A stretch of 64,000 nt of DNA from Thermodesulfobacteriota bacterium (GCA_965205855.1 OZ242184.1:822570-886569); one strand, 5' to 3'. Counted from the stretch's first letter, positions 30,886 through 42,398 are shown. Notes: generated from the letters alone by a model not told the origin. Numbers and translations are program-made.

Positions 30886-31569
30886 GTGATGGCAGAGAAT
30901 CTTGCGTTATTGAAGGAGAGTCCTTTGCCGCTCAAAGCCGTCATATTTGACATGGACGGGGTGCTTATAGAAAGCGAGCCCCTGTGGGAAGCGGCGGAAA
31001 TCACCCTTCTCAAATCAAGAGGCATAGAATACGACCCTCTTTTCAGAGAAAAAGTTATCGGGCTCAATCAGATTGACTCATCAAAACTCATCATTCGGGA
31101 ATTTGGCGTGAAAAACTGTTCGCCCGAAGAGATGATAAGACAGCGTATAGAAATTCTTCTTGGGATTTACGATAAAAAACTCACAATGTTTGAAGGCTCT
31201 AAAGCGCTTGTTGAAAAGATACGGGAAAGCGGATTTAAGACCGCCCTGGCGTCCAGCTCACCCATGGAAGTGATAACGTATGTGCTTGAAAGGTTTTCAC
31301 TTACGAAACTTTTTGACGCGGTGGTTTCAGGTAGCTGCATTCAAAACGGCAAGCCCGCTCCCGATATCTACTTGCTCGCGGCGGAGCAGCTCGGGGTTCA
31401 ACCGCCTGAATGCGCCGCGGTTGAAGACTCGCCCATAGGAGTAAAATCCGCCGTTTCCGCCGGAATGTTCTGCATCGGCGTTCCCGACAAGCGGCTCAAA
31501 GCCGAAGAGTTTGAAATCTGTGATGTGATTTGTGAAAACATCGGGCAAGTGGAAAAAATAATCGCTTAA
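30886..31569 (+). CDS. HAD-family phosphatase (beta-PGM-like)
   Basis: Motifs AVIFDMDGVLIESEPLW and AVEDSPIGVKSAVSAGMFCIGV. Confidence 0.7.
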   Translation: MMAENLALLKESPLPLKAVIFDMDGVLIESEPLWEAAEITLLKSRGIEYDPLFREKVIGLNQIDSSKLIIREFGVKNCSPEEMIRQRIEILLGIYDKKLTMFEGSKALVEKIRESGFKTALASSSPMEVITYVLERFSLTKLFDAVVSGSCIQNGKPAPDIYLLAAEQLGVQPPECAAVEDSPIGVKSAVSAGMFCIGVPDKRLKAEEFEICDVICENIGQVEKIIA

Positions 31570-31576
31570 ATTTTCT

Positions 31577-32239
31577 TTAATCGCATGGCGACATAAAGCA
31601 GTTGGAATCATGCACATTACCCGGGCTGTAATCAGTTGACTTAATGAACCCATCTTCATCCACATTAATGTGCGCCTTGTAACCATAGGTACTTTTGCGC
31701 TTTCCATCCGACCCGGCTTTTACATTCCAGCCGACCTCGGGGTCTTGGGTCGAATGACCTTCCTGGTTCTTGTGGGGACGGCATTGCTTCGCTTCAATCA
31801 CACTGGCATCAACAATACTGACCCCTCCCGATTGGATGTAAAGCCCTTGTTCGCTCAATTGAGTGTTGATCTCACGGAGGCACTCATCCATTAAGGACAA
31901 GCTCTCCAGCGTTTGTCTAAACCGCCAAAACGTCGCGTGATTCGGCACAGATTCTGAAATGTCCAGACCGGTGAAGCGACGAAACAGCAGATCCCGTGCC
32001 AACTGCTTTTCCAGTGCCGGGTCACTGAGTCCGTACCAGCTTCGCAGCAATAAAGCTTTAAACATCATCAATGGTGGCCAGGCCTTCTCGCCCCGAGGGT
32101 TTGAATGAATACCTGAAAGCTGTTGCTCCAGGCGCGACCAATCGATTAATTCGTGCACGGCATCCAGTTCTTTGAGCGCATCATGCTCGAGCAACAGGCC
32201 ATCCGCCAAACTGCGTTGCCTGAGGTTTTTCCAGGCCAT
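31577..32239 (-). pseudogene. IS5-family DDE transposase, C-terminally truncated
   Basis: 220-aa ORF MAWKNLRQRSL...LSDPALEKQLARDLLFRRFTGL...STYGYKAHINVDEDGFI, which is the N-terminal two-thirds of the 39273..40257 transposase. Confidence 0.8.
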
Positions 32240-32336
32240 TTCTTCTTCTCCAGGGGGTATAGTGGTGGGGTATAGTGCTTGAGCCTATTATCGCAAATTC
32301 TCAACGCAGATTCTTCTGGTTTTATGCAAAGGTCTC
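31594..32336 (-). mobile_element. truncated IS5-family insertion sequence (copy 1, ~740 bp), covering the right ~60% of the element
   Basis: ~95% nucleotide identity to 39612..40345, including the terminal GAGACCTTTGCA inverted-repeat end at 32336. Similarity stops abruptly at 31594, 24 nt after the HAD gene stop. Confidence 0.8.
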
Positions 32337-32540
32337 TAATAAGTAGAACTGTCCGATCACAGACCTCCAGAAAACGCCGCGATGCCTCATTCTGGGTGGG
32401 ACGGCTTTCCGTCCACCCTCCGATAGCTGATAAGCTCGCTGATCAAGTACATCGAACAACATCGCTGTTAACTGTTTCGTTTCCAGGAAATGATGAAACT
32501 GCAAAATCACACTCTCATCGGGAAGACGATCATCGTCCAA
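32322..32540 (-). pseudogene. remnant of a second, different IS5-like transposase N-terminal domain
   Basis: 72-aa ORF with LPDESVILQFHHFLETKQLTAMLFDVLDQRAYQLSEGG. This resembles the InsH-type N-terminal motif (PDxTTLxxFRxxLxxxxLxxxLFxxV...GL) but is unrelated in sequence to the flanking IS copies. Confidence 0.3.
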
Positions 32541-32690
32541 ATCCTAATGCGCAAAACGACGCATCGATTCGACCTTTGGCATACTGTCTTCCGTTAGTGG
32601 GTCGGACAGGTACTGTTTTCCATCGGGTTTCGCGGCACTGTAAGCGAGGCAGGTGGCCTTCGTCACAAGCGTTGGCAACGAGCTACTATC

Positions 32691-35600
32691 TCAATCTTTA
32701 TTTTCCGCCTTAAAATGCTTCGCCTCGCCAATGAGCGCCTCTATTTCCTCTCTTTTGCTTGTCGTAAGCCTTCTCAAGCCAACGCGATTGACGATGTAAT
32801 CCAGAGGGGAGTGCCGGTTACGGTCAGCGGAAATAGCATCTAGTGCCAGGCCGAGCTTTTCTGGATAGGGAACCTGTTCCCAAGAGCGTTCTTCACCGCC
32901 AAATTCAAGGCCGCGAAACTTGAGTACTTTTTCAGGTGGCTGATGATGCGGCCAGAAAATGTTTTCCCCCGACGGGCCTTTTTGAATTCGGCGCTTTTTG
33001 TGAACTGCTGCCCTGACCGTTTTTTTGATTCGAGAACCGCTTCTCCGGAACCCATGCAATCGTGCCATCTTCTGGCAAAGATGTTCGTGGGTGATCGGCC
33101 CGAACCGGTCAATGATGTCAGTGCCCAAGTCCATCAGGGTAGAGCGATATTCGTCATCGTAGAAGGAATCCGAATCGAGTCTTCGATTTCCCTGTGTAGA
33201 ACTCCTGCCATCAAGCCGATCAGCTGCGGGTAGTGAGCTCCGTGGTTGCTCAATTGAGTTTTCCCTATCTTGCCCGGTTTGCTGAATTTCCCTATCGTGC
33301 GGCGAATTATGGGGCCGCGTGCGCGCAGCTTTGGGTGCCCGCTCCACTTTTTCCACGACAGCTGTTCGGAGATGGTTGCCGATCAGGACGTCAATTTCGT
33401 CGCCTTCTTCAGTTCCCAGGAGTGCTTCGCCCAACGGCGTAAAAGTGCCGACAATGCTGTTCGACGGATCGTTGTTTCGATCGTCCAGTGTCACTTTCAG
33501 AAATTCATCAGGGTCGTCCAGGTATCGAACCTGGACGGTGTCTCCAGGGCCGACGCCTACGCCGAAACCGTATTTTTCTTCTTCGGTGGCTTTTTGGTCA
33601 TCGTCGGATACCTCGCTGAGCTCATCATCTTCGATGGGCTGAACAATGGCAGTCGATTGCGTTTCCAGTGAAGTTTCGGTGAATTTATCAGCATTTCTTT
33701 TCAGATCTTCCATGCGTTGAGTAATAACGCCCCGCAGTATCTCGGCTTCGCGAGGAGGGTCATTGAACCAATCCGTCGACCAAATCCGGTGGAAATGCCA
33801 CCCGAGGCCCTCGAGCACCTCCTGGCGAAGTCTGTCGCGGTCTCTGGCGGATTTCGAGGAATGATAACTGGCACCGTCGCATTCGACCCCAAGAATGTAA
33901 CCGTGGGGCCAATTCGGATGTTTGACGCCGATATCGATAAAGTAGCCAGCAACGCCGACCTGTGGTACGGCCCCGCATCCCATCGCTTTAATCTGGTCGA
34001 TTACGAAAACCTCGAACTCCGAGCCAGGCTCCCCGGGGGCATGTGTCCCGCCTTCGAGTACCCCGGTTTCCGAGTAGTCGAGCCACCGCTTGAGCATGTA
34101 GGTTCCTGGGTTGCCGTTTTCATCCGCACGAATATCTGCAGCGGTCATTGATGAGAAAGTGATAATCTGCTCTTTGGCGCGTGAAAAGAGCACGTTCAAA
34201 CGGCGCTTACCTGCAAGTCCGTTGATGGGGCCAAAACGCTGCATGACCGGCCCGCCAGTGTTTTCGGATCCATAGACGGTTCCAATAAAAATTACGTCCC
34301 TTTCGTCGCCCTGAACATTTTCGAGATTCTTAATAAAGAAACTCTCAAGCCCATCGTTCTTCTCGTTCCAATAATTAACATAGTCTGCAGCCTTCTTCCT
34401 TGTCCTTAAAGCATCTTCCATCTCCTCGATCATCAGGTCTCGCTGTTTCTGATTCAGCGTGACGATACCGAGAGAGCGATCCGGGCTCCGTTCCATGAAA
34501 TCCAGCGCCGCATCGACCATCACCCGGGATTCCGGCCCGTTTATTCCCGATTGGTAAATACCGTCGACAGAGACGCGAGACACGCCCATGTCCTTGCGGC
34601 CCTCATGGGCGGAGGGAAAAACGATCAGCTTATCGTCATAAACGAGTTTGTTGGAAAACTTGATCAAGTCCGAATGGCGTGATCGATAATGCCAGCGGAG
34701 CTGCCTTTTTGGTCTGAACGCAGCGTTTGCCAGTTCGAGGATCGACTCATCCAGCACGGTCTCGTCCTCGTCCTCCTCGTCGATCATCCTGCGAAAGAAG
34801 GTGGTAGGGGGCAGTTGATTGGTGTCCCCAACGATCATCGTCTGTTTCGAGCGGATCAGCGCACCGAAGGCATCTTCGGGTGGCATTTGTGACGCTTCGT
34901 CGATGATGCAAAGATCGAACTCGACCGTGCCTCGGGGAAGGTATTGTGCAACGGCCAGCGGCGACATCATCCAACAGGGCTTCAACTCCTGAAGGGCTTT
35001 ACCTGATCTCTCAGCAAGGGCGCGCATGGGGACAAACCTTTTTTTCTTGCTTATTTCGTTTTCGATGAGCGCCCACTCAGTCAATTCAGATTTTTTGCCC
35101 ACTCGTATGCCTGGCGGCGGATTCGCAGATTGTTGAATGCGCTGTCTGATCATCTGTCTTGTAGATTGGATGATCTGCTTGTCCGCATTTGCGAGCTTTT
35201 CGCGTAGATCATCCAGTTTTGACCCATGAAAACGCCCTAAAACGGAATTAAAATCGTGATCGCGATAAACGCGCTTTGCCAGGCTCCTTGCAACCAGGGC
35301 ATTGGCGATTTTCGGGAGATCAGAAAGCGGGATGCAATTTTCCTGACAGATGTTCGCGAGTTTGGGGTGTCCGAATTTCGCAAAAGAATCCAGAGCAACT
35401 GCGTATTCGGAGCGCTTGTACATCTCTTCAGAATTATGGACGGCCTGTTTCAGGAAGTCGGCTATTTGAGCATTCGTCCGACCTGTACGGAAGTGGGCGT
35501 CATTCTGGCCTGTCAGGCCGGACAACGCGTTGAGCCGATTCGCCGCCATGCTTGATAAATTTAGATACTTTTCCAGTTGAGAACGGAAATCTGCAACTTT

Positions 35601-38600
35601 GTTATCGCGGATCAACTTGACGATGAGTTCTCGCCATTCTTCCACCGCTGGCAACACGGTTTTCGCAATGGAAAGTTCCGGTTCCGCGTCATTTGCGACG
35701 GTATCATGCCCACTAAACTGATCTTGGAGCAATGCTCGCACCGGCTCCTTATCCGTTAATTCCGCATGAATTTCGTGCAACCTGACAACATCACTCCGGA
35801 GCACCTGCAATCCGACGATGTCAAGCCGGTCCGCTGCGGGAATGTCCGACAGAAGTGTAGACAGCTCTTGGATTCCCGACTCGAAAGATTCTTTGCGCCG
35901 GGTTAACTCGTCAATTCGTTCCAGCAGGCTCTCGTAGTCTCCCTCCCATTCGGGAAGGGAAATCTTCGGGATAGACACGAGCAGATCCAGAGCGCCATGC
36001 TTCAGAACGTCACGGATCGCCAGCTTTTCTACACCGGGGAGCCTTTGCTCAACGACTTCGAAGAATTTCAGAAGGTTCCCGAAGGAAACGAAGTCGGTAT
36101 CAAGGCCCAGGTTGTGGAGTCCAAGGACACTGTCCAGGGCAGGCAGCTTGAAAAACCGGTCTTTTTCGTCAAGCCAATCAGACAACGCTTTGAGATCCGA
36201 TGCCGCAGAGACCCTGTCAAAGCGGGCCGCATAGGCAAGTTCCATATATGCTTGCTTGGCAGACCGATAGGACGGCGAGAGAAAACCAAACATCCCGGCC
36301 TCAGCGATCTGGCAAGCATGTTGCCGCAGGTGCTGAGGGTCAGTTTCCGTCTTTAGAGAAACCCGCGTACCCAAGTCGACCGCTGACCTTTTTAATTTCT
36401 CGCCGAGTTCGCAGACTTGCCGGATGACGATGGCAGCCTCAGGCGACGCGGTTGTTTCGTTCCTAAGTGCAAGAGCGGCACGGTCGGTCTTTTCGATGAT
36501 GCCAGCCGCACATTGGAGATCACATATCAAGAAGTCTCGGCACTCAGGAAATGCTTCAAGAAATGGCCTTAGTTTCGTGGAGAGAGCCTGGAGATCTTCG
36601 AGCTTGCTATTGTCTGCACCTTGCCTGCTTTCAAGCTCCTTGAGGCTGAGGGTTTCGAAGTCGTGCGCCTGACAGACACGTTCAATTTCGGTAAGCCGTT
36701 CATTCCAGACCGCGTCCATTGGCTCTCGGACGCTTCTTCCGATTTCATCAATGCGGTCGCGCAACGCATTGCAATCGGAAATGAACTGCTCGATATGATC
36801 GACCGAATCTTGGTCTAACAGCCGATCCACCAGATCTGCATCCGGGCGAGCTCCGGTAAGCTCCACACCATTAAGGCAGGATTTCAGAAGATCCAGATCC
36901 TGTTCGTATTGAGAACTCTCCATTCCCATATCGTTCAACGCTTGTTCCAGAACACTCAAGGAATGGAAAGATTTCTCCGCCGCGTTGGCAGTTTCACCAA
37001 TTTTCTCGACATCAAACTTACTGATATTCTCGACGCTCAAGCCTCGCCAGTAATCGCCGACGTCCTTCAGTTTTCCCCATGCACGCCCGAGGGATTCTGC
37101 GGCGCTGATAATGTTCTCAACCTGAGACGAAGACATGTCCTCGATTTGGTCGAAGTCGATGTCTCGAATTTCTTTGGGCAAGTTGTCTAGAATCTCGTGG
37201 GTGGCGATATTCTTTCCCAATATCTCATGGACGGAGAGCTCCGAATTTCCGAACTTCCTACCGATAACGGAAACGTATTCGGCGAGCTCTGCCCGATACT
37301 TGTTGAAATTCTCTCGAATACTTTCGAGATCGTGGTAATTACTCACAGTCTCCATCTCAACCCGGCCCCGAATCGACTGGATCACCTTTTCCTTTGTCGA
37401 ACGTTCGGCTTGAAGCGGTAGGACGAATTCGCCAAGGCCCACGGATTCGAGGCGCGATTTTACAATCTCAAGAGCGGCCATCTTTTCGGCCACGAAGAGC
37501 ACTTTCTTGCCAGAGCCCAACGCACACGCAATCGCATTCACGATCGTCTGGGATTTCCCTGTCCCCGGCGGCCCTTCGACTGCGAGGTTCCTTCCTTCGG
37601 CCAGGTCGACAAGTGTGCTGAACTGCGAGGAGTCCGCGTCCATAACAACGTATGGCACTTTTTCTTCGATTTCGGGGGCATCCATTTCATATTCCTCCTC
37701 GAACGGGGTCGCGGAGGAAGCTTCTGTACCGATAAGCATCGTCTCGATAATGTCGCTCTGTTCAAAAGTCGCACTGGATGTATCAAGATCGTGATACATT
37801 GCCATTCGAGAAGACGGGAAAACACCAAAGACAACTTGCCGGCGCACGCGGATATTGAGGTTACTGGGCAGCGCATCAGCGACGCGTTTCAAATAGTCCT
37901 CGACGGAACCGCCTTCGTAGCCTGGAAGTTCAATACCGAAATCTTGCTTAAGCTTCTCCGCAAGCACCAGATTCGTCTCGGCCTCATCGCCGCGGCCGTT
38001 AACCCGGAACTCCAGACCTTTGCGCGTTTTTTTCTTTTCCAGTTCGACCGGGAGAAGGACTATCGGAGAGAAGTAAACCCTGTCTTCCTTCGGTTCCTTC
38101 CATTCGAGAAAGCCGAAAGCTGCATGCAACACATTGATGCCGGATTCCTGAATCCATGTCCGGGATTTCGCCAAAATTCCATTCAGTTTCCGTTCGAACT
38201 CGCCGGGAAGAAGGAGAGTCTGGATATCCTCGTCAGTATGACGCCCGTCTTCATGTTCTTCCTCTGGCAGAGGAAGGTCGTAAGACGGGGAGATGTGATT
38301 GTTCTTTGCGTGCTGGGATAGTGACGTATCCCCCTGCTCTGCTCGGGGCAACATCCCCAGCTGCTCTCTTACGCGATCCTTCAGGTCACGGTCTATTTGC
38401 TCTTCGCGGTCGAGCGCCTCCGCCGCATCCGGATCGAGGTTTTGCAACTGCTCGAGATAGGCTTCGCCGACGGCACGGGCTTGGCTAAGCGCATTTCGGA
38501 ACTCTCGCGTCTGCTCGTCTTTTGGATCGTCTTCGAGGGACGGCAGGGGCACAAAGCGCATCGGTTTTTGGAGCGAGAGGTTCGCCATAAGCACGTCCGG

Positions 38601-38765
38601 CAATTCATCAACGATTCGTGCAAACGGTCCTCGCCGACCCAAATTCGCCGATATCAGAGGGTTGCGGCGCGTAAGATCAAGCAGTTTTCGGCGTAGATTC
38701 TCTACCTTGTCTTTCAGTATCTGGACAAACCCCTCTTGATCTGTGCTGTTTTCGACTCGATCCAT
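32691..38765 (-). CDS. giant (2024 aa) DUF4011-like / Upf1-like SF1 helicase / Vsr-type PD-(D/E)xK endonuclease / GreA-C-like multidomain protein; candidate Hhe-like defence helicase-nuclease
   Basis: N-terminus RRKLLDLTRRNPLISANLGRRGPFARIVDELPD (DUF4011-like). Walker A VEGPPGTGKSQ at aa ~398. After an ~880-aa coiled-coil-rich insert come DLCIIDEASQM (motif II), MIVGDTNQLPP, GIVTLNQKQRD, VQGDERDVIFIGTV and RLNVLFSRAKEQI. Next is a DUF559/Vsr-like block GYFIDIGVKHPNWPHGYILGVECDGASYHSSKSARDRDRLRQEVLEGLGWHFHRIWSTDWF, then a GreA-C-like segment GDTVQVRYLD...IVGTFTPLGEALLGTEEGDEIDV. Confidence 0.85.
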   Translation of the reverse strand: MDRVENSTDQEGFVQILKDKVENLRRKLLDLTRRNPLISANLGRRGPFARIVDELPDVLMANLSLQKPMRFVPLPSLEDDPKDEQTREFRNALSQARAVGEAYLEQLQNLDPDAAEALDREEQIDRDLKDRVREQLGMLPRAEQGDTSLSQHAKNNHISPSYDLPLPEEEHEDGRHTDEDIQTLLLPGEFERKLNGILAKSRTWIQESGINVLHAAFGFLEWKEPKEDRVYFSPIVLLPVELEKKKTRKGLEFRVNGRGDEAETNLVLAEKLKQDFGIELPGYEGGSVEDYLKRVADALPSNLNIRVRRQVVFGVFPSSRMAMYHDLDTSSATFEQSDIIETMLIGTEASSATPFEEEYEMDAPEIEEKVPYVVMDADSSQFSTLVDLAEGRNLAVEGPPGTGKSQTIVNAIACALGSGKKVLFVAEKMAALEIVKSRLESVGLGEFVLPLQAERSTKEKVIQSIRGRVEMETVSNYHDLESIRENFNKYRAELAEYVSVIGRKFGNSELSVHEILGKNIATHEILDNLPKEIRDIDFDQIEDMSSSQVENIISAAESLGRAWGKLKDVGDYWRGLSVENISKFDVEKIGETANAAEKSFHSLSVLEQALNDMGMESSQYEQDLDLLKSCLNGVELTGARPDADLVDRLLDQDSVDHIEQFISDCNALRDRIDEIGRSVREPMDAVWNERLTEIERVCQAHDFETLSLKELESRQGADNSKLEDLQALSTKLRPFLEAFPECRDFLICDLQCAAGIIEKTDRAALALRNETTASPEAAIVIRQVCELGEKLKRSAVDLGTRVSLKTETDPQHLRQHACQIAEAGMFGFLSPSYRSAKQAYMELAYAARFDRVSAASDLKALSDWLDEKDRFFKLPALDSVLGLHNLGLDTDFVSFGNLLKFFEVVEQRLPGVEKLAIRDVLKHGALDLLVSIPKISLPEWEGDYESLLERIDELTRRKESFESGIQELSTLLSDIPAADRLDIVGLQVLRSDVVRLHEIHAELTDKEPVRALLQDQFSGHDTVANDAEPELSIAKTVLPAVEEWRELIVKLIRDNKVADFRSQLEKYLNLSSMAANRLNALSGLTGQNDAHFRTGRTNAQIADFLKQAVHNSEEMYKRSEYAVALDSFAKFGHPKLANICQENCIPLSDLPKIANALVARSLAKRVYRDHDFNSVLGRFHGSKLDDLREKLANADKQIIQSTRQMIRQRIQQSANPPPGIRVGKKSELTEWALIENEISKKKRFVPMRALAERSGKALQELKPCWMMSPLAVAQYLPRGTVEFDLCIIDEASQMPPEDAFGALIRSKQTMIVGDTNQLPPTTFFRRMIDEEDEDETVLDESILELANAAFRPKRQLRWHYRSRHSDLIKFSNKLVYDDKLIVFPSAHEGRKDMGVSRVSVDGIYQSGINGPESRVMVDAALDFMERSPDRSLGIVTLNQKQRDLMIEEMEDALRTRKKAADYVNYWNEKNDGLESFFIKNLENVQGDERDVIFIGTVYGSENTGGPVMQRFGPINGLAGKRRLNVLFSRAKEQIITFSSMTAADIRADENGNPGTYMLKRWLDYSETGVLEGGTHAPGEPGSEFEVFVIDQIKAMGCGAVPQVGVAGYFIDIGVKHPNWPHGYILGVECDGASYHSSKSARDRDRLRQEVLEGLGWHFHRIWSTDWFNDPPREAEILRGVITQRMEDLKRNADKFTETSLETQSTAIVQPIEDDELSEVSDDDQKATEEEKYGFGVGVGPGDTVQVRYLDDPDEFLKVTLDDRNNDPSNSIVGTFTPLGEALLGTEEGDEIDVLIGNHLRTAVVEKVERAPKAARTRPHNSPHDREIQQTGQDRENSIEQPRSSLPAADRLDGRSSTQGNRRLDSDSFYDDEYRSTLMDLGTDIIDRFGPITHEHLCQKMARLHGFRRSGSRIKKTVRAAVHKKRRIQKGPSGENIFWPHHQPPEKVLKFRGLEFGGEERSWEQVPYPEKLGLALDAISADRNRHSPLDYIVNRVGLRRLTTSKREEIEALIGEAKHFKAENKD

Positions 38766-39136
38766 TTTTGTCTCTTTACTCAGTTGTTTGACTGTAACAT
38801 CAGCCTATGGGATTAGTTTGACATAGAGTGATTCATCGTCAAAATATCCTATAGCCACTGCCTATTAGCGACGATTATGCGATTTTTTGAGATGCTAGTT
38901 AAGGGGAATCTAATGAAATTCATAGCCACGCTGGCGACTCTGCCCAGAACTGCCGACCTGCTGACTCTATCAAACATCGATCCTTATTTTACAACATGTC
39001 ATATGACTAACAGAACTTGGACCTCGGCTCACACAGATCTAAATTTCTTGTTCCCAAATAACATCAATCTAGATCCTATATAATCAAGCACATCAACACT
39101 ATATCGCTTGTGGTGGCGACTGGAATACTGAGATTA

Positions 39137-40345
39137 GAGACCTTTGCACGGACACATTGTAGAGTTTATCAGTTCTTCAAACGGGCTTTTTTTTGAGAAA
39201 AATGCCCAAAAAGCACTCAATCAGCCGTATTGGTTGGCCGATTAGCCCATCTTTCCACCCCTTTTTCATTTTTTAGGCGCAACTTGCCTGCTGAAGCGAT
39301 AAACCCCGCTTGATATTGTCGGCGACGCACATCAACTCAAAGCGCGTGCGGTTACGGCCAAGACCCAGGTAGCGGGCTTTGCCCATCCCGTAGTGTAGCT
39401 TTAACACCCCAAAGACACGTTCCACCGTACAGCGTACCCCCGAATGAAGCCGGTTAAACTTCCTCCCCTGTGCATCCAACGGCTGGTTGCGATAAGCCAC
39501 GTTTGATGATCCGATTATCTATCTGTCGCTCCGCCAGCCACGGGTCGTGAGCCTGACTACGATAAGCATTATCCGCATAAACCGCCGTCTCATCGCCGCT
39601 TAATAAATCCGTAAAGCAGTTGGAATCATGCACATGACCCGGGCTGTAGTCGGTTGACTTAATGAACCCATCTTCATCCACATTAATGTGCGCCTTGTAA
39701 CCATAGGTACTTTTGCGCTTTCCATCCGACCCGGCTTTCACATTCCAGCCGACCTCGGGGTCTTGGGTCGAATGACCTTCCTGGTTCTTGTGGGGACGGC
39801 ATTGCTTCGCTTCAATCACACTGGCATCAACAATACTGACCCCTCCCGATTGGATGTAAAGCCCTTGTTCGCTCAATTGAGTGTTGATCTCACCCAGGCA
39901 CGCATCCATCAAGGATAAGCGCTCCAGCGTTTGTCTAAACCGCCACAACGTCGCGTGATCCGGCACCGATTCTGAAATGTCCAGACCGGTGAAGCGACGA
40001 AACAGCAGATCCCGTGCCAATTGCTTTTCCAGTGCCGGGTCACTGAGTCCGTACCAGCTTCGCAGCAACAAAGCTTTAAACATCATCAATGGTGGCCAGG
40101 CCTTCTCGCCCCGAGGGTTTGAATGAATACCTGAAAGCTGTTGCTCCAGGCGCGACCAATCGATTAATTCGTGCACAGCATCCAGTTCTTTGAGCGCATC
40201 ATGATCGATCAACAGGCCATCCGTCAAACTGCGTTGCCTGAGGTTTTTCCAGGCCATTTCTTCTCCAGTGGAGGGGTATAGTGCTTGGGCGGCCTATTAT
40301 CTCAAATCCTCAACGTAGGTTCTTCTGGTTTTATGCAAAGGTCTC
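39137..40345 (-). mobile_element. full-length IS5-family insertion sequence (copy 2, ~1.2 kb) with terminal inverted repeats GAGACCTTTGCA
   Basis: Inverted-repeat-left GAGACCTTTGCAcgg at 39137 and inverted-repeat-right tatGCAAAGGTCTC ending at 40345. The internal transposase is in the same orientation as copy 1. Confidence 0.8.
39273..40257 (-). pseudogene. IS5-family DDE transposase, split by a frameshift near 39480-39500
   Basis: ORFs 39454..40257 (...TAVYADNAYRSQ...IIKRG) and 39273..39500 (AYRNQPLDAQGRKFNRLHSGVRCTVERVFGVLK...) together make a typical ~320-aa IS5 transposase in two frames. Confidence 0.75.
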
Positions 40346-40370
40346 AATTTAAGAAATAAGAATAGTAATG

Positions 40371-40420
40371 GGGTCAGAGTAATATTTATCCCCCATGGTT
40401 TCTTAATTCGACTCTGACCC
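40371..40420 (-). terminator. perfect 10-bp inverted repeat GGGTCAGAGT...ACTCTGACCC (30-nt loop) followed by a T-rich tract on the minus strand; putative terminator of the 40437..41510 gene, abutting the IS end
   Basis: Seen directly. On the minus strand the hairpin is followed by CATTACTATTCTTATTTCTT. Confidence 0.4.
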
Positions 40421-40436
40421 TTATTGTTTCCTTTCG

Positions 40437-41510
40437 TTATTTTTCACTAATGATATATGGGAACTGTATTTTATAACGCATTGCATTGTTTGCGTTATCG
40501 TCAATTGCTACACCGGTCATTAGCTGTAATACCGTATTCATCGCATCGTCGTGCAAGGCACGTCCGTTAAGGCCGTTCACCGTATAATTCGCCTTTGTAC
40601 CGATTTTGTAATTCATAATATCCGGCATCACCATATCAGCCACCTTGTATGCATGTTTTTTTGCTACGGCAGGCTTTGCGCCAGCCACTGATGTCGCCCA
40701 AAAAACATTGTGAATAATCGTCTGGCGTCTTTCCGCAACATCTAAATCGGGACGATGTTGCCCATGATCTTCATGCACAGCGGGTGTATCAGAAAGAAAG
40801 ACATAAGGGAAAAGTACATTCGCGTGGCGATCAACCTGACACCACTCATCTTTGTAAAAAACTGATGTTGTTGTAAAAAACTTAACTTCACTCCCTAACA
40901 TTTTATTAGGAACATCCACCACAATAAAACTCGCCGTTGCACCTATAAATAAATCTCCATCTTCTTTAAAAATCTCCGGCGCAAAAGTGCCTTTTTGTTT
41001 AGCTGCATTAAATTTAGCTAATCCCACACCATTTCCAAAAAAAGGATCATTGCCTCTACCCACCCAAACACGCATGCCGTTTGATAGGTTTATTTTTTTA
41101 CCCACCTGCCCATTACCTGTCGGCTTTCCTTTTTCTCCCACTTTCGCATTGGGAGTATCTATTTTTGAGATAGAAACGTTTCCTTTTTGAAAAGAGAACA
41201 CCAGTGTCATACCTTTTTTAAAAGCCATATCTTGCGCAAAATGAAGATTATAAAGCCCACCTTGAGCAAACACTACACCAGCAGGTGACGTGCCTGTTCC
41301 TGGCTGACTCGGATTAGATGAAGAGATAAAAGAGGTATACCCCTTATTGCTAGACTGGAACACATAAGTGTCATTAAGATCATAAGCAGGATACTTGCCC
41401 TGCAAACCCGATATAAAGTGCCCAGAAGCATGCACAGTACCCACCGCATAAGCTAAACCTAATAATGCGGTTACAAATATAAATCCACTTTTTATAATAC
41501 TATTTTTCAT
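40437..41510 (-). CDS. secreted hypothetical protein (signal peptide; possibly DUF4331-like)
   Basis: N-terminus MKNSIIKSGFIFVTALLGLAYAVGTVHA is a Sec signal. It is a G/N/K-rich mature protein with ...NGRALHDDAMNTVLQ... and lies in an AT-rich (~38% GC) segment. Confidence 0.5.
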   Translation of the reverse strand: MKNSIIKSGFIFVTALLGLAYAVGTVHASGHFISGLQGKYPAYDLNDTYVFQSSNKGYTSFISSSNPSQPGTGTSPAGVVFAQGGLYNLHFAQDMAFKKGMTLVFSFQKGNVSISKIDTPNAKVGEKGKPTGNGQVGKKINLSNGMRVWVGRGNDPFFGNGVGLAKFNAAKQKGTFAPEIFKEDGDLFIGATASFIVVDVPNKMLGSEVKFFTTTSVFYKDEWCQVDRHANVLFPYVFLSDTPAVHEDHGQHRPDLDVAERRQTIIHNVFWATSVAGAKPAVAKKHAYKVADMVMPDIMNYKIGTKANYTVNGLNGRALHDDAMNTVLQLMTGVAIDDNANNAMRYKIQFPYIISEK

Positions 41511-41567
41511 ATTACATACCCTCTTTGATTATTAATTTTGATTATTAATATAGGGGAATTATATACG

Positions 41568-42398
41568 ATGTTAGCCATATTTAATAACATTCCTGACCAA
41601 AGTATCTGGACTGCCTACCAGCATTACATCAAACTTCAGGGATGGTTCAACCCGAGCGGACTGGAACTCATGGCGCCTAAGCACAATGGGACTTATGCAT
41701 GTAGGCACTGGCGAGGGACCCCAGATTATTCAGATGCAAATGACAACTACTTTCCACATTACAAACTATCCGTGGATGCAACGGAAGAGACTCTAATAAA
41801 AGATATTGAAAACTTAAAAAAAAATCTCAAAGAGGGTCTGCATGCAAATCTACAACTGAATGTTTTGCTATATTCGCTTCACGCCTACAAACCGCTCCTG
41901 CAAGCAAGGCAAAACTGCCCCGTGCGCATAAGCCCTGTTGCCTTAAACAAAGACGAAGCGGACTTTGTTGAATTTCTGGTTCAAGTTGTAAGAAGCGAAG
42001 ATATTGACAAGGAGATTTATCTGATGCGCAACCTGACCAAAGGGAAAGGCATTTCCTTCTTTGACACCCACTCTTTTTATCCTGACTTCATACTTTGGAT
42101 GAAAGACGGTAAAAGACAGGACATTCTCTTTATAGACCCAAAAGGTCTTCAAAAGTTTGACAGAAAAACCAAATCCAAAACGGGTTTGCACAAGCAGATA
42201 AAAGAAACAGAAAAGAAGATTCAAAAGAAAAATCCCAAACTTTTTCTTCACTCCTATATCTGGTCAACAACCCATCCTCAGGACATTGGTTCCGATAAGA
42301 ATCTCACGGAAGAAGAACTCAAGAAGTCGGGAGTCTTCTTTGCTTCAAATAGAAAGTCTGAACTTAAAGAACTTTTGAACCATGCTCTCAAGAACTGA
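41568..42398 (+). CDS. hypothetical protein with a PD-(D/E)xK-like nuclease motif
   Basis: Translation ...[37 protein letters not shown]... (PD ... D-x-K). ATG at 41568 is preceded by GGGG. The ORF-track TTG start at 41538 is less likely. AT-rich sequence with a K-rich C-terminus. Confidence 0.5.

Follow-up and report, generated by a model that had tools for sequence, protein, structure and literature searches.

A predicted Hhe-type helicase-nuclease gene with GreA-C-like and winged-helix modules between two insertion sequence copies in a Dadabacteria chromosome

In the present study, a single giant open reading frame (ORF) and its surroundings were analysed in a 64,000-nucleotide stretch of a Dadabacteria chromosome (hereafter, the window). 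The following features were observed at the locus.

31545 to 42397, no strand: whole variable region relative to the syntenic Dadabacteria contig L085, 10.85 kb, between a HAD hydrolase gene and a His_Phos gene
about 31595 to 32336, minus strand: IS copy A, a 742-bp 5' fragment of an IS5-family element, about 96% identical to copy B and in the same orientation
32337 to 32583, minus strand: degenerate remnant of an IS5/DUF772-type transposase N-terminus with an in-frame stop, between the IS copies
32691 to 38765, minus strand: intact Hhe-like DUF4011 helicase-nuclease ORF of 2024 aa, long form with GreA-C-like and DUF3320 modules
38766 to 39136, minus strand: AT-rich upstream spacer, 371 bp, 39.9% GC
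39137 to 40345, minus strand: IS copy B, a full-length IS5-family element of 1209 bp with 12-bp terminal inverted repeats (GAGACCTTTGCA)

The ORF begins with ATG and runs uninterrupted for 6075 nt, exactly as the original prediction had described it. It is also richer in GC than its flanks, as had been claimed (52.5%, with a GC3 of 57.8%, against 46.2% in the rest of the window), and the AT-rich region of about 370 bp said to lie upstream corresponds to the 371-bp spacer. Within this spacer, the promoter search gave one sigma-70-like match (minus strand, 38902 to 38874), which was not above chance. From the N- to the C-terminus, the 2024-aa protein consists of DUF4011, an Upf1-like SF1B helicase, a Vsr-fold nuclease, a GreA-C-like domain and DUF3320 winged helices, encoded as follows.

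37950 to 38687, minus strand: DUF4011 N-terminal domain, residues 27-272 (Pfam PF13195, E 4.4e-34)
37356 to 37640, minus strand: N-terminal part of RecA1, with Walker A GPPGTGKS at residues 398-405 (K404)
35121 to 37343, minus strand: all-alpha insertion within RecA1, residues about 475-1215, a helical-bundle array (AF2 model)
34086 to 35120, minus strand: C-terminal part of RecA1 and RecA2, Upf1-like SF1B core (Pfam AAA_11 and AAA_12; Foldseek)
33732 to 34016, minus strand: Vsr-fold PD-(D/E)xK nuclease of the MTES_1575 type, residues 1584-1678 (Pfam, E 6e-34)
33330 to 33560, minus strand: GreA/GreB C-terminal-like domain, residues 1736-1812
32694 to 33185, minus strand: C-terminal DUF3320 module, residues 1861-2024, a predicted tandem winged helix (Pfam, AF2)

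Thus, all of the four parts that had been predicted are present, but the folded DUF3320 winged-helix domain of 164 residues had been missed. The profile searches proposed with the prediction returned Pfam matches to DUF4011, to SF1 helicases and to a Vsr-family nuclease. In the helicase, AAA_19/AAA_30 match around Walker A (residues 388-436), the C-terminal end of AAA_11 covers residues 1282-1323 and AAA_12 covers residues 1339-1538. Motif II (DEASQ) lies at residues 1289-1293, motif III at 1312-1320, motif V at 1484-1490 and motif VI at 1521-1530, and the structural neighbours of the core found with Foldseek are Dna2, IGHMBP2, Sen1/SETX and Upf1. For the nuclease, which had been called DUF559/Vsr-like, the Vsr-family assignment stands through the MTES_1575 match, but DUF559 itself reached only an E-value of 0.079. 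Residues D1611, E1628 and D1630 are conserved, and all of the helicase and nuclease motifs are intact and invariant, or nearly so, in family alignments.

The insertion in the helicase core is about 810-890 aa long. An insertion of about 880 aa had been placed between RecA1 and RecA2; it is present, but it lies inside RecA1 (AAA_11), between motifs I/Ia and II. It is also not rich in coiled coils as had been supposed, since AF2 model 2 consists here of helices only (pLDDT about 80-92), many of them short (10-35 residues) and arranged in bundles. Nor is the insertion new, because it is homologous to and collinear with that of canonical Hhe in the NCBIfam Hhe alignment; the claim that so long an insertion had not been described for Hhe does not hold, as Walker A and motif II of canonical Hhe are located at about 440 and about 1390, respectively.

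The GreA-C-like domain bears the Gre signature GDTV.V.Y ... PLG.ALLG...GDEI.V, and its predicted structure adopts the Gre C-terminal fold, which bears out the resemblance first noticed. The Pfam GreA_GreB match (residues 1738-1808, E 2.4e-5) scores 24.7 bits, just below the gathering score of 26.9 bits. The domain is preceded by a single helix and an acidic disordered linker (AF2 pLDDT below 50). To our knowledge, the Gre C-terminal domain binds the secondary channel of RNA polymerase in every characterised carrier (GreA, GreB, Gfh1 and Rnk). The globular domain is common to GreA/GreB and the 2024-aa protein; however, unlike GreA, GreB, Gfh1 and Rnk, the protein has no confident N-terminal antiparallel coiled-coil finger with an acidic tip, and the Gre domain is one module of a large enzyme. 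Therefore, the protein is not a Gre factor, and this identification was rejected, only the domain being common. The domain had been thought undescribed for Hhe; it is indeed absent from canonical Hhe, but this gene is not alone in having it, as 116 of the 121 closest homologues carry it too, and it is already flagged by Pfam precomputed domains and by IMG product names. In the DUF3320 module, the Pfam match covers residues 1866-1915 (32 bits), the AF2 pLDDT is 91-96 and the fold matches are winged helices. DUF3320 overlaps a pair of wHTH domains (PMC3710099).

Hhe was reportedly introduced as a single-gene defence by Gao and colleagues in 2020. Hhe proteins, e.g. the Klebsiella plasmid protein WP_021314612, resemble the ORF product in the N-terminal DUF4011, in the Upf1-like SF1 helicase with a helical insertion of about 800-950 aa in RecA1 and in the C-terminal MTES_1575/Vsr-fold nuclease with the same catalytic residues; however, the identity is only 28-46% (46% in the C-terminal helicase part and the nuclease and 28% in the N-terminal part, against a Klebsiella Hhe named by PGAP). 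Moreover, canonical Hhe has neither the GreA-C-like nor the DUF3320 module, and its tail of about 130 residues is unrelated. In NCBIfam Hhe_antiphage, query residues 21-1721 align to profile positions 2-1720, so that the assignment to Hhe stands as that of a collinear relative, but the 1156 bits obtained fall short of the equivalog cut-off of 2000 bits (NF042953). Similarly, the PADLOC Hhe model (PDLC02194) gives 762 bits for the ORF product versus 4299 bits for true Hhe. As a single gene, Hhe is active against lambda, T3, T7 and PhiV-1, and the nuclease point mutation E1731A abolishes this defence (bioRxiv 10.1101/2022.06.16.496414). The PhageMaP preprint lists T7 g1.4-g2 and g2.8, in a class II cluster of DNA metabolism, as potential Hhe triggers, and shows that Bas63 g40 is toxic only when hhe is present (bioRxiv 10.1101/2024.10.10.617714). 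A published mechanism for Hhe was not found.

Three further groups were compared. First, the PADLOC search that had also been proposed returned the candidate system PDC-S37 (PDLC05009) as the best model (1102 bits), with query residues 991-2015 aligned to positions 649-1533 of 1550. PDC-S37 comprises helicase-nucleases named 'DUF3320 domain-containing', and an alignment reaching residue 2015 takes in the C-terminal modules of the ORF; however, it is a broad profile of a candidate system only, with a higher score for canonical Hhe (1267 bits) than for the ORF product, so that it does not tell the two apart. Since the profile is shorter, its members have a smaller insertion than the ORF product. 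No mention of PDC-S37 was found in the literature searched. Second, ProA (NCBIfam NF058533) is homologous to the ORF product over residues 15-1729, but the score of 1012 bits is below the cut-off of 1500 bits and the profile extends about 350 positions further at the N-terminus; no description of ProA was found in the literature searched. Third, CnuH of type III-B CoCoNuTs is a UPF1-like helicase with a helical insertion that contains coiled coils, fused directly to a Vsr-like PD-(D/E)xK nuclease (Bell et al., eLife 2024, PMC11090510), and is thus like the ORF product in layout. However, CoCoNuTs are multi-gene McrBC-type systems, whereas no McrB/McrC-like (CnuB/CnuC) genes were found in the flanks of the ORF. 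Conserved partner genes are likewise missing, as the neighbours differ among the window, L001, L002, L086, L087, L008, L010 and L017.

The gene had been described as the sole cargo between two IS5-family copies. It is the only intact gene in the inner 6.8 kb, but neither IS is functional. Copy A is cut off beside the 3' end of the HAD gene, where the outer 460 bp and the terminal repeat are missing, and its transposase is truncated at 220 aa; in copy B, a 1-nt frameshift splits the transposase into a 267-aa ORF (39454-40257) and a remainder in a different frame. Both flanking ORFs pass the NCBIfam IS5 model transpos_IS5_4, and only three IS ends are present in the window. The cargo is bounded exactly by the inner IS ends, where homology to the L002 copy stops at 39136 and 32337, one base away. 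The remnant at 32337-32583 has an intact counterpart, an 84-aa ORF, at L002 17784-18038. The cargo sits between two like-oriented copies of one IS, as it would in an IS5-family composite transposon; however, complete outer terminal inverted repeats and an intact transposase would be expected, and the locus has neither. No target-site duplication could be identified at the IS copies. The variable region exceeds the IS-bracketed part to which the island had been assigned, and a DUF4331-like gene and a type III Res-like fragment are also inside.

At the syntenic site of L085, the ORF is absent and only a methyltransferase-HNH gene is found. The hotspot carries defence-type genes in both genomes. 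The 6.8-kb unit is present in at least three unrelated genomic contexts at 96-99% DNA identity, in one of them bracketed by IS copies and in another, L002, interrupted by an IS that splits the sister copy of the gene. In agreement with the expectation of a sporadic rather than universally core distribution, the gene is accessory, not core, in this Dadabacteria lineage. Relatives with 50% identity (L086 and L087) adjoin transposases or integrases, and two GreA-C-bearing relatives (L008 and L017) lie among KwaB-like, GmrSD, and type I and type IIG restriction-modification genes. The relatives number at least 597 and are spread over many phyla, and the best match in species-representative genomes, with the C-terminal region as the query, has 48% identity. 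The window locus itself is not a rich defence island, because the neighbours are housekeeping genes.

Taken together, these results suggest that the gene is a horizontally acquired, single-protein helicase-nuclease of the Hhe type, and we consider a function in defence against phages or mobile elements to be the likely one. A relative of Hhe with a domain of the type that docks on RNA polymerase would be a plausible twist on a known kind of defence. Herein, we propose a working model. First, the 6.8-kb segment would have become enclosed by a pair of IS5-family copies and been inserted into the Dadabacteria chromosome at a small hotspot of variable content that holds defence genes. In the resting protein, the nuclease may be kept inactive inside the large helical scaffold. 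Second, the GreA-C-like domain would dock on RNA polymerase at its secondary channel, by way of the beta-prime rim helices, and the winged helices would bind nucleic acid. Third, infection might disturb transcription or DNA metabolism and expose a 5' single-stranded tail, an R-loop or a stalled complex, upon which the helicase would load and then translocate 5' to 3' with ATP. Finally, the Vsr-like nuclease would cut DNA and halt replication of the phage, perhaps sacrificing the cell.

The coupling to RNA polymerase, which we infer only, is the least certain of these steps. That the GreA-C-like domain tethers an immune helicase-nuclease to the secondary channel, and that the transcription machinery thereby sets off defence or directs it to its targets, is a speculative proposal that we consider rather doubtful. 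The protein might sense a phage-inhibited or stalled RNA polymerase, or ride polymerases on invading DNA, while the tandem winged helices read nucleic acid. The phage T7 protein gp2 inhibits host RNA polymerase. With T7 g1.4-g2 among the potential Hhe triggers, a link to transcription is therefore conceivable. We know of no description of immune sensing coupled to RNA polymerase for Hhe or for other helicase-nuclease defences. Canonical Hhe works without the GreA-C-like and DUF3320 modules, and therefore both would be dispensable for basic activity.

Despite the likeness to Hhe, the protein could instead serve genome maintenance or transcription, as a Sen1/senataxin-like 5' to 3' helicase placed on RNA polymerase by its Gre-like domain to clear R-loops or stalled complexes, while the nuclease would process the structures left behind. 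The resemblance of the core to Sen1, SETX, Upf1, IGHMBP2 and Dna2, the binding properties of characterised Gre C-terminal domains and the housekeeping neighbours in the window are consistent with such a role. Moreover, at least one DUF4011 gene belongs to the core genome of P. aeruginosa (PMC10250203), so members of the family need not all be mobile defence genes. However, a related genome lacks the gene at the syntenic site, the gene is bracketed by IS copies and has a foreign GC content, and near-identical copies occur in other, unrelated settings, with one copy inactivated by IS insertion; the relatives adjoin integrases, transposases, toxin-antitoxin and restriction genes, and the homologue Hhe has been shown experimentally to be a defence gene. 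Thus, we consider this role improbable. Slightly less probable still, the gene may be a decaying passenger, i.e. a recently transferred and unselected relic of a fossil composite transposon, neither expressed nor functional in its host. The two defective flanking IS copies, the IS-split sister copy, the promoter search and a dN/dS of 0.56 against the L001 copy, which is compatible with relaxed constraint, point in this direction, but so long a frame would soon close in the absence of selection, and the 6075 nt are uninterrupted with every family-invariant helicase and nuclease motif intact. Finally, a metagenomic mis-join at the IS repeats, bringing the 6.8-kb segment from another community member into an uncultured lineage known from assemblies only, would explain the exact IS boundaries and the 96-99% identical copies on contigs with flanks of differing composition, but it is very unlikely, since the IS copies differ by about 4% and so are not collapsed repeats, the truncated copy A has a unique junction to the HAD gene and copy B a unique outer junction, a repeat-mediated chimera needs matching IS copies in both genomes, and the site is a variable hotspot in L085 too.

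Hence, we favour a horizontally acquired defence gene. Hhe is an experimentally validated defence, and the clade studied here adds a GreA-C-like domain and tandem winged helices to the Hhe chassis. With its 96-99% identity in three backgrounds, the 6.8-kb unit is a clear example of how a putative defence of one gene has recently spread horizontally and turned over, and this spread reaches the little-studied phylum Dadabacteria. If the gene is merely another Hhe-like member, the value of the finding is one of annotation only. The GreA-C-like and winged-helix modules nevertheless provide a testable handle on how giant helicase-nucleases find or sense their targets, and if tethering to RNA polymerase were true, it would represent a mode of immune sensing new for helicase-nuclease defences.

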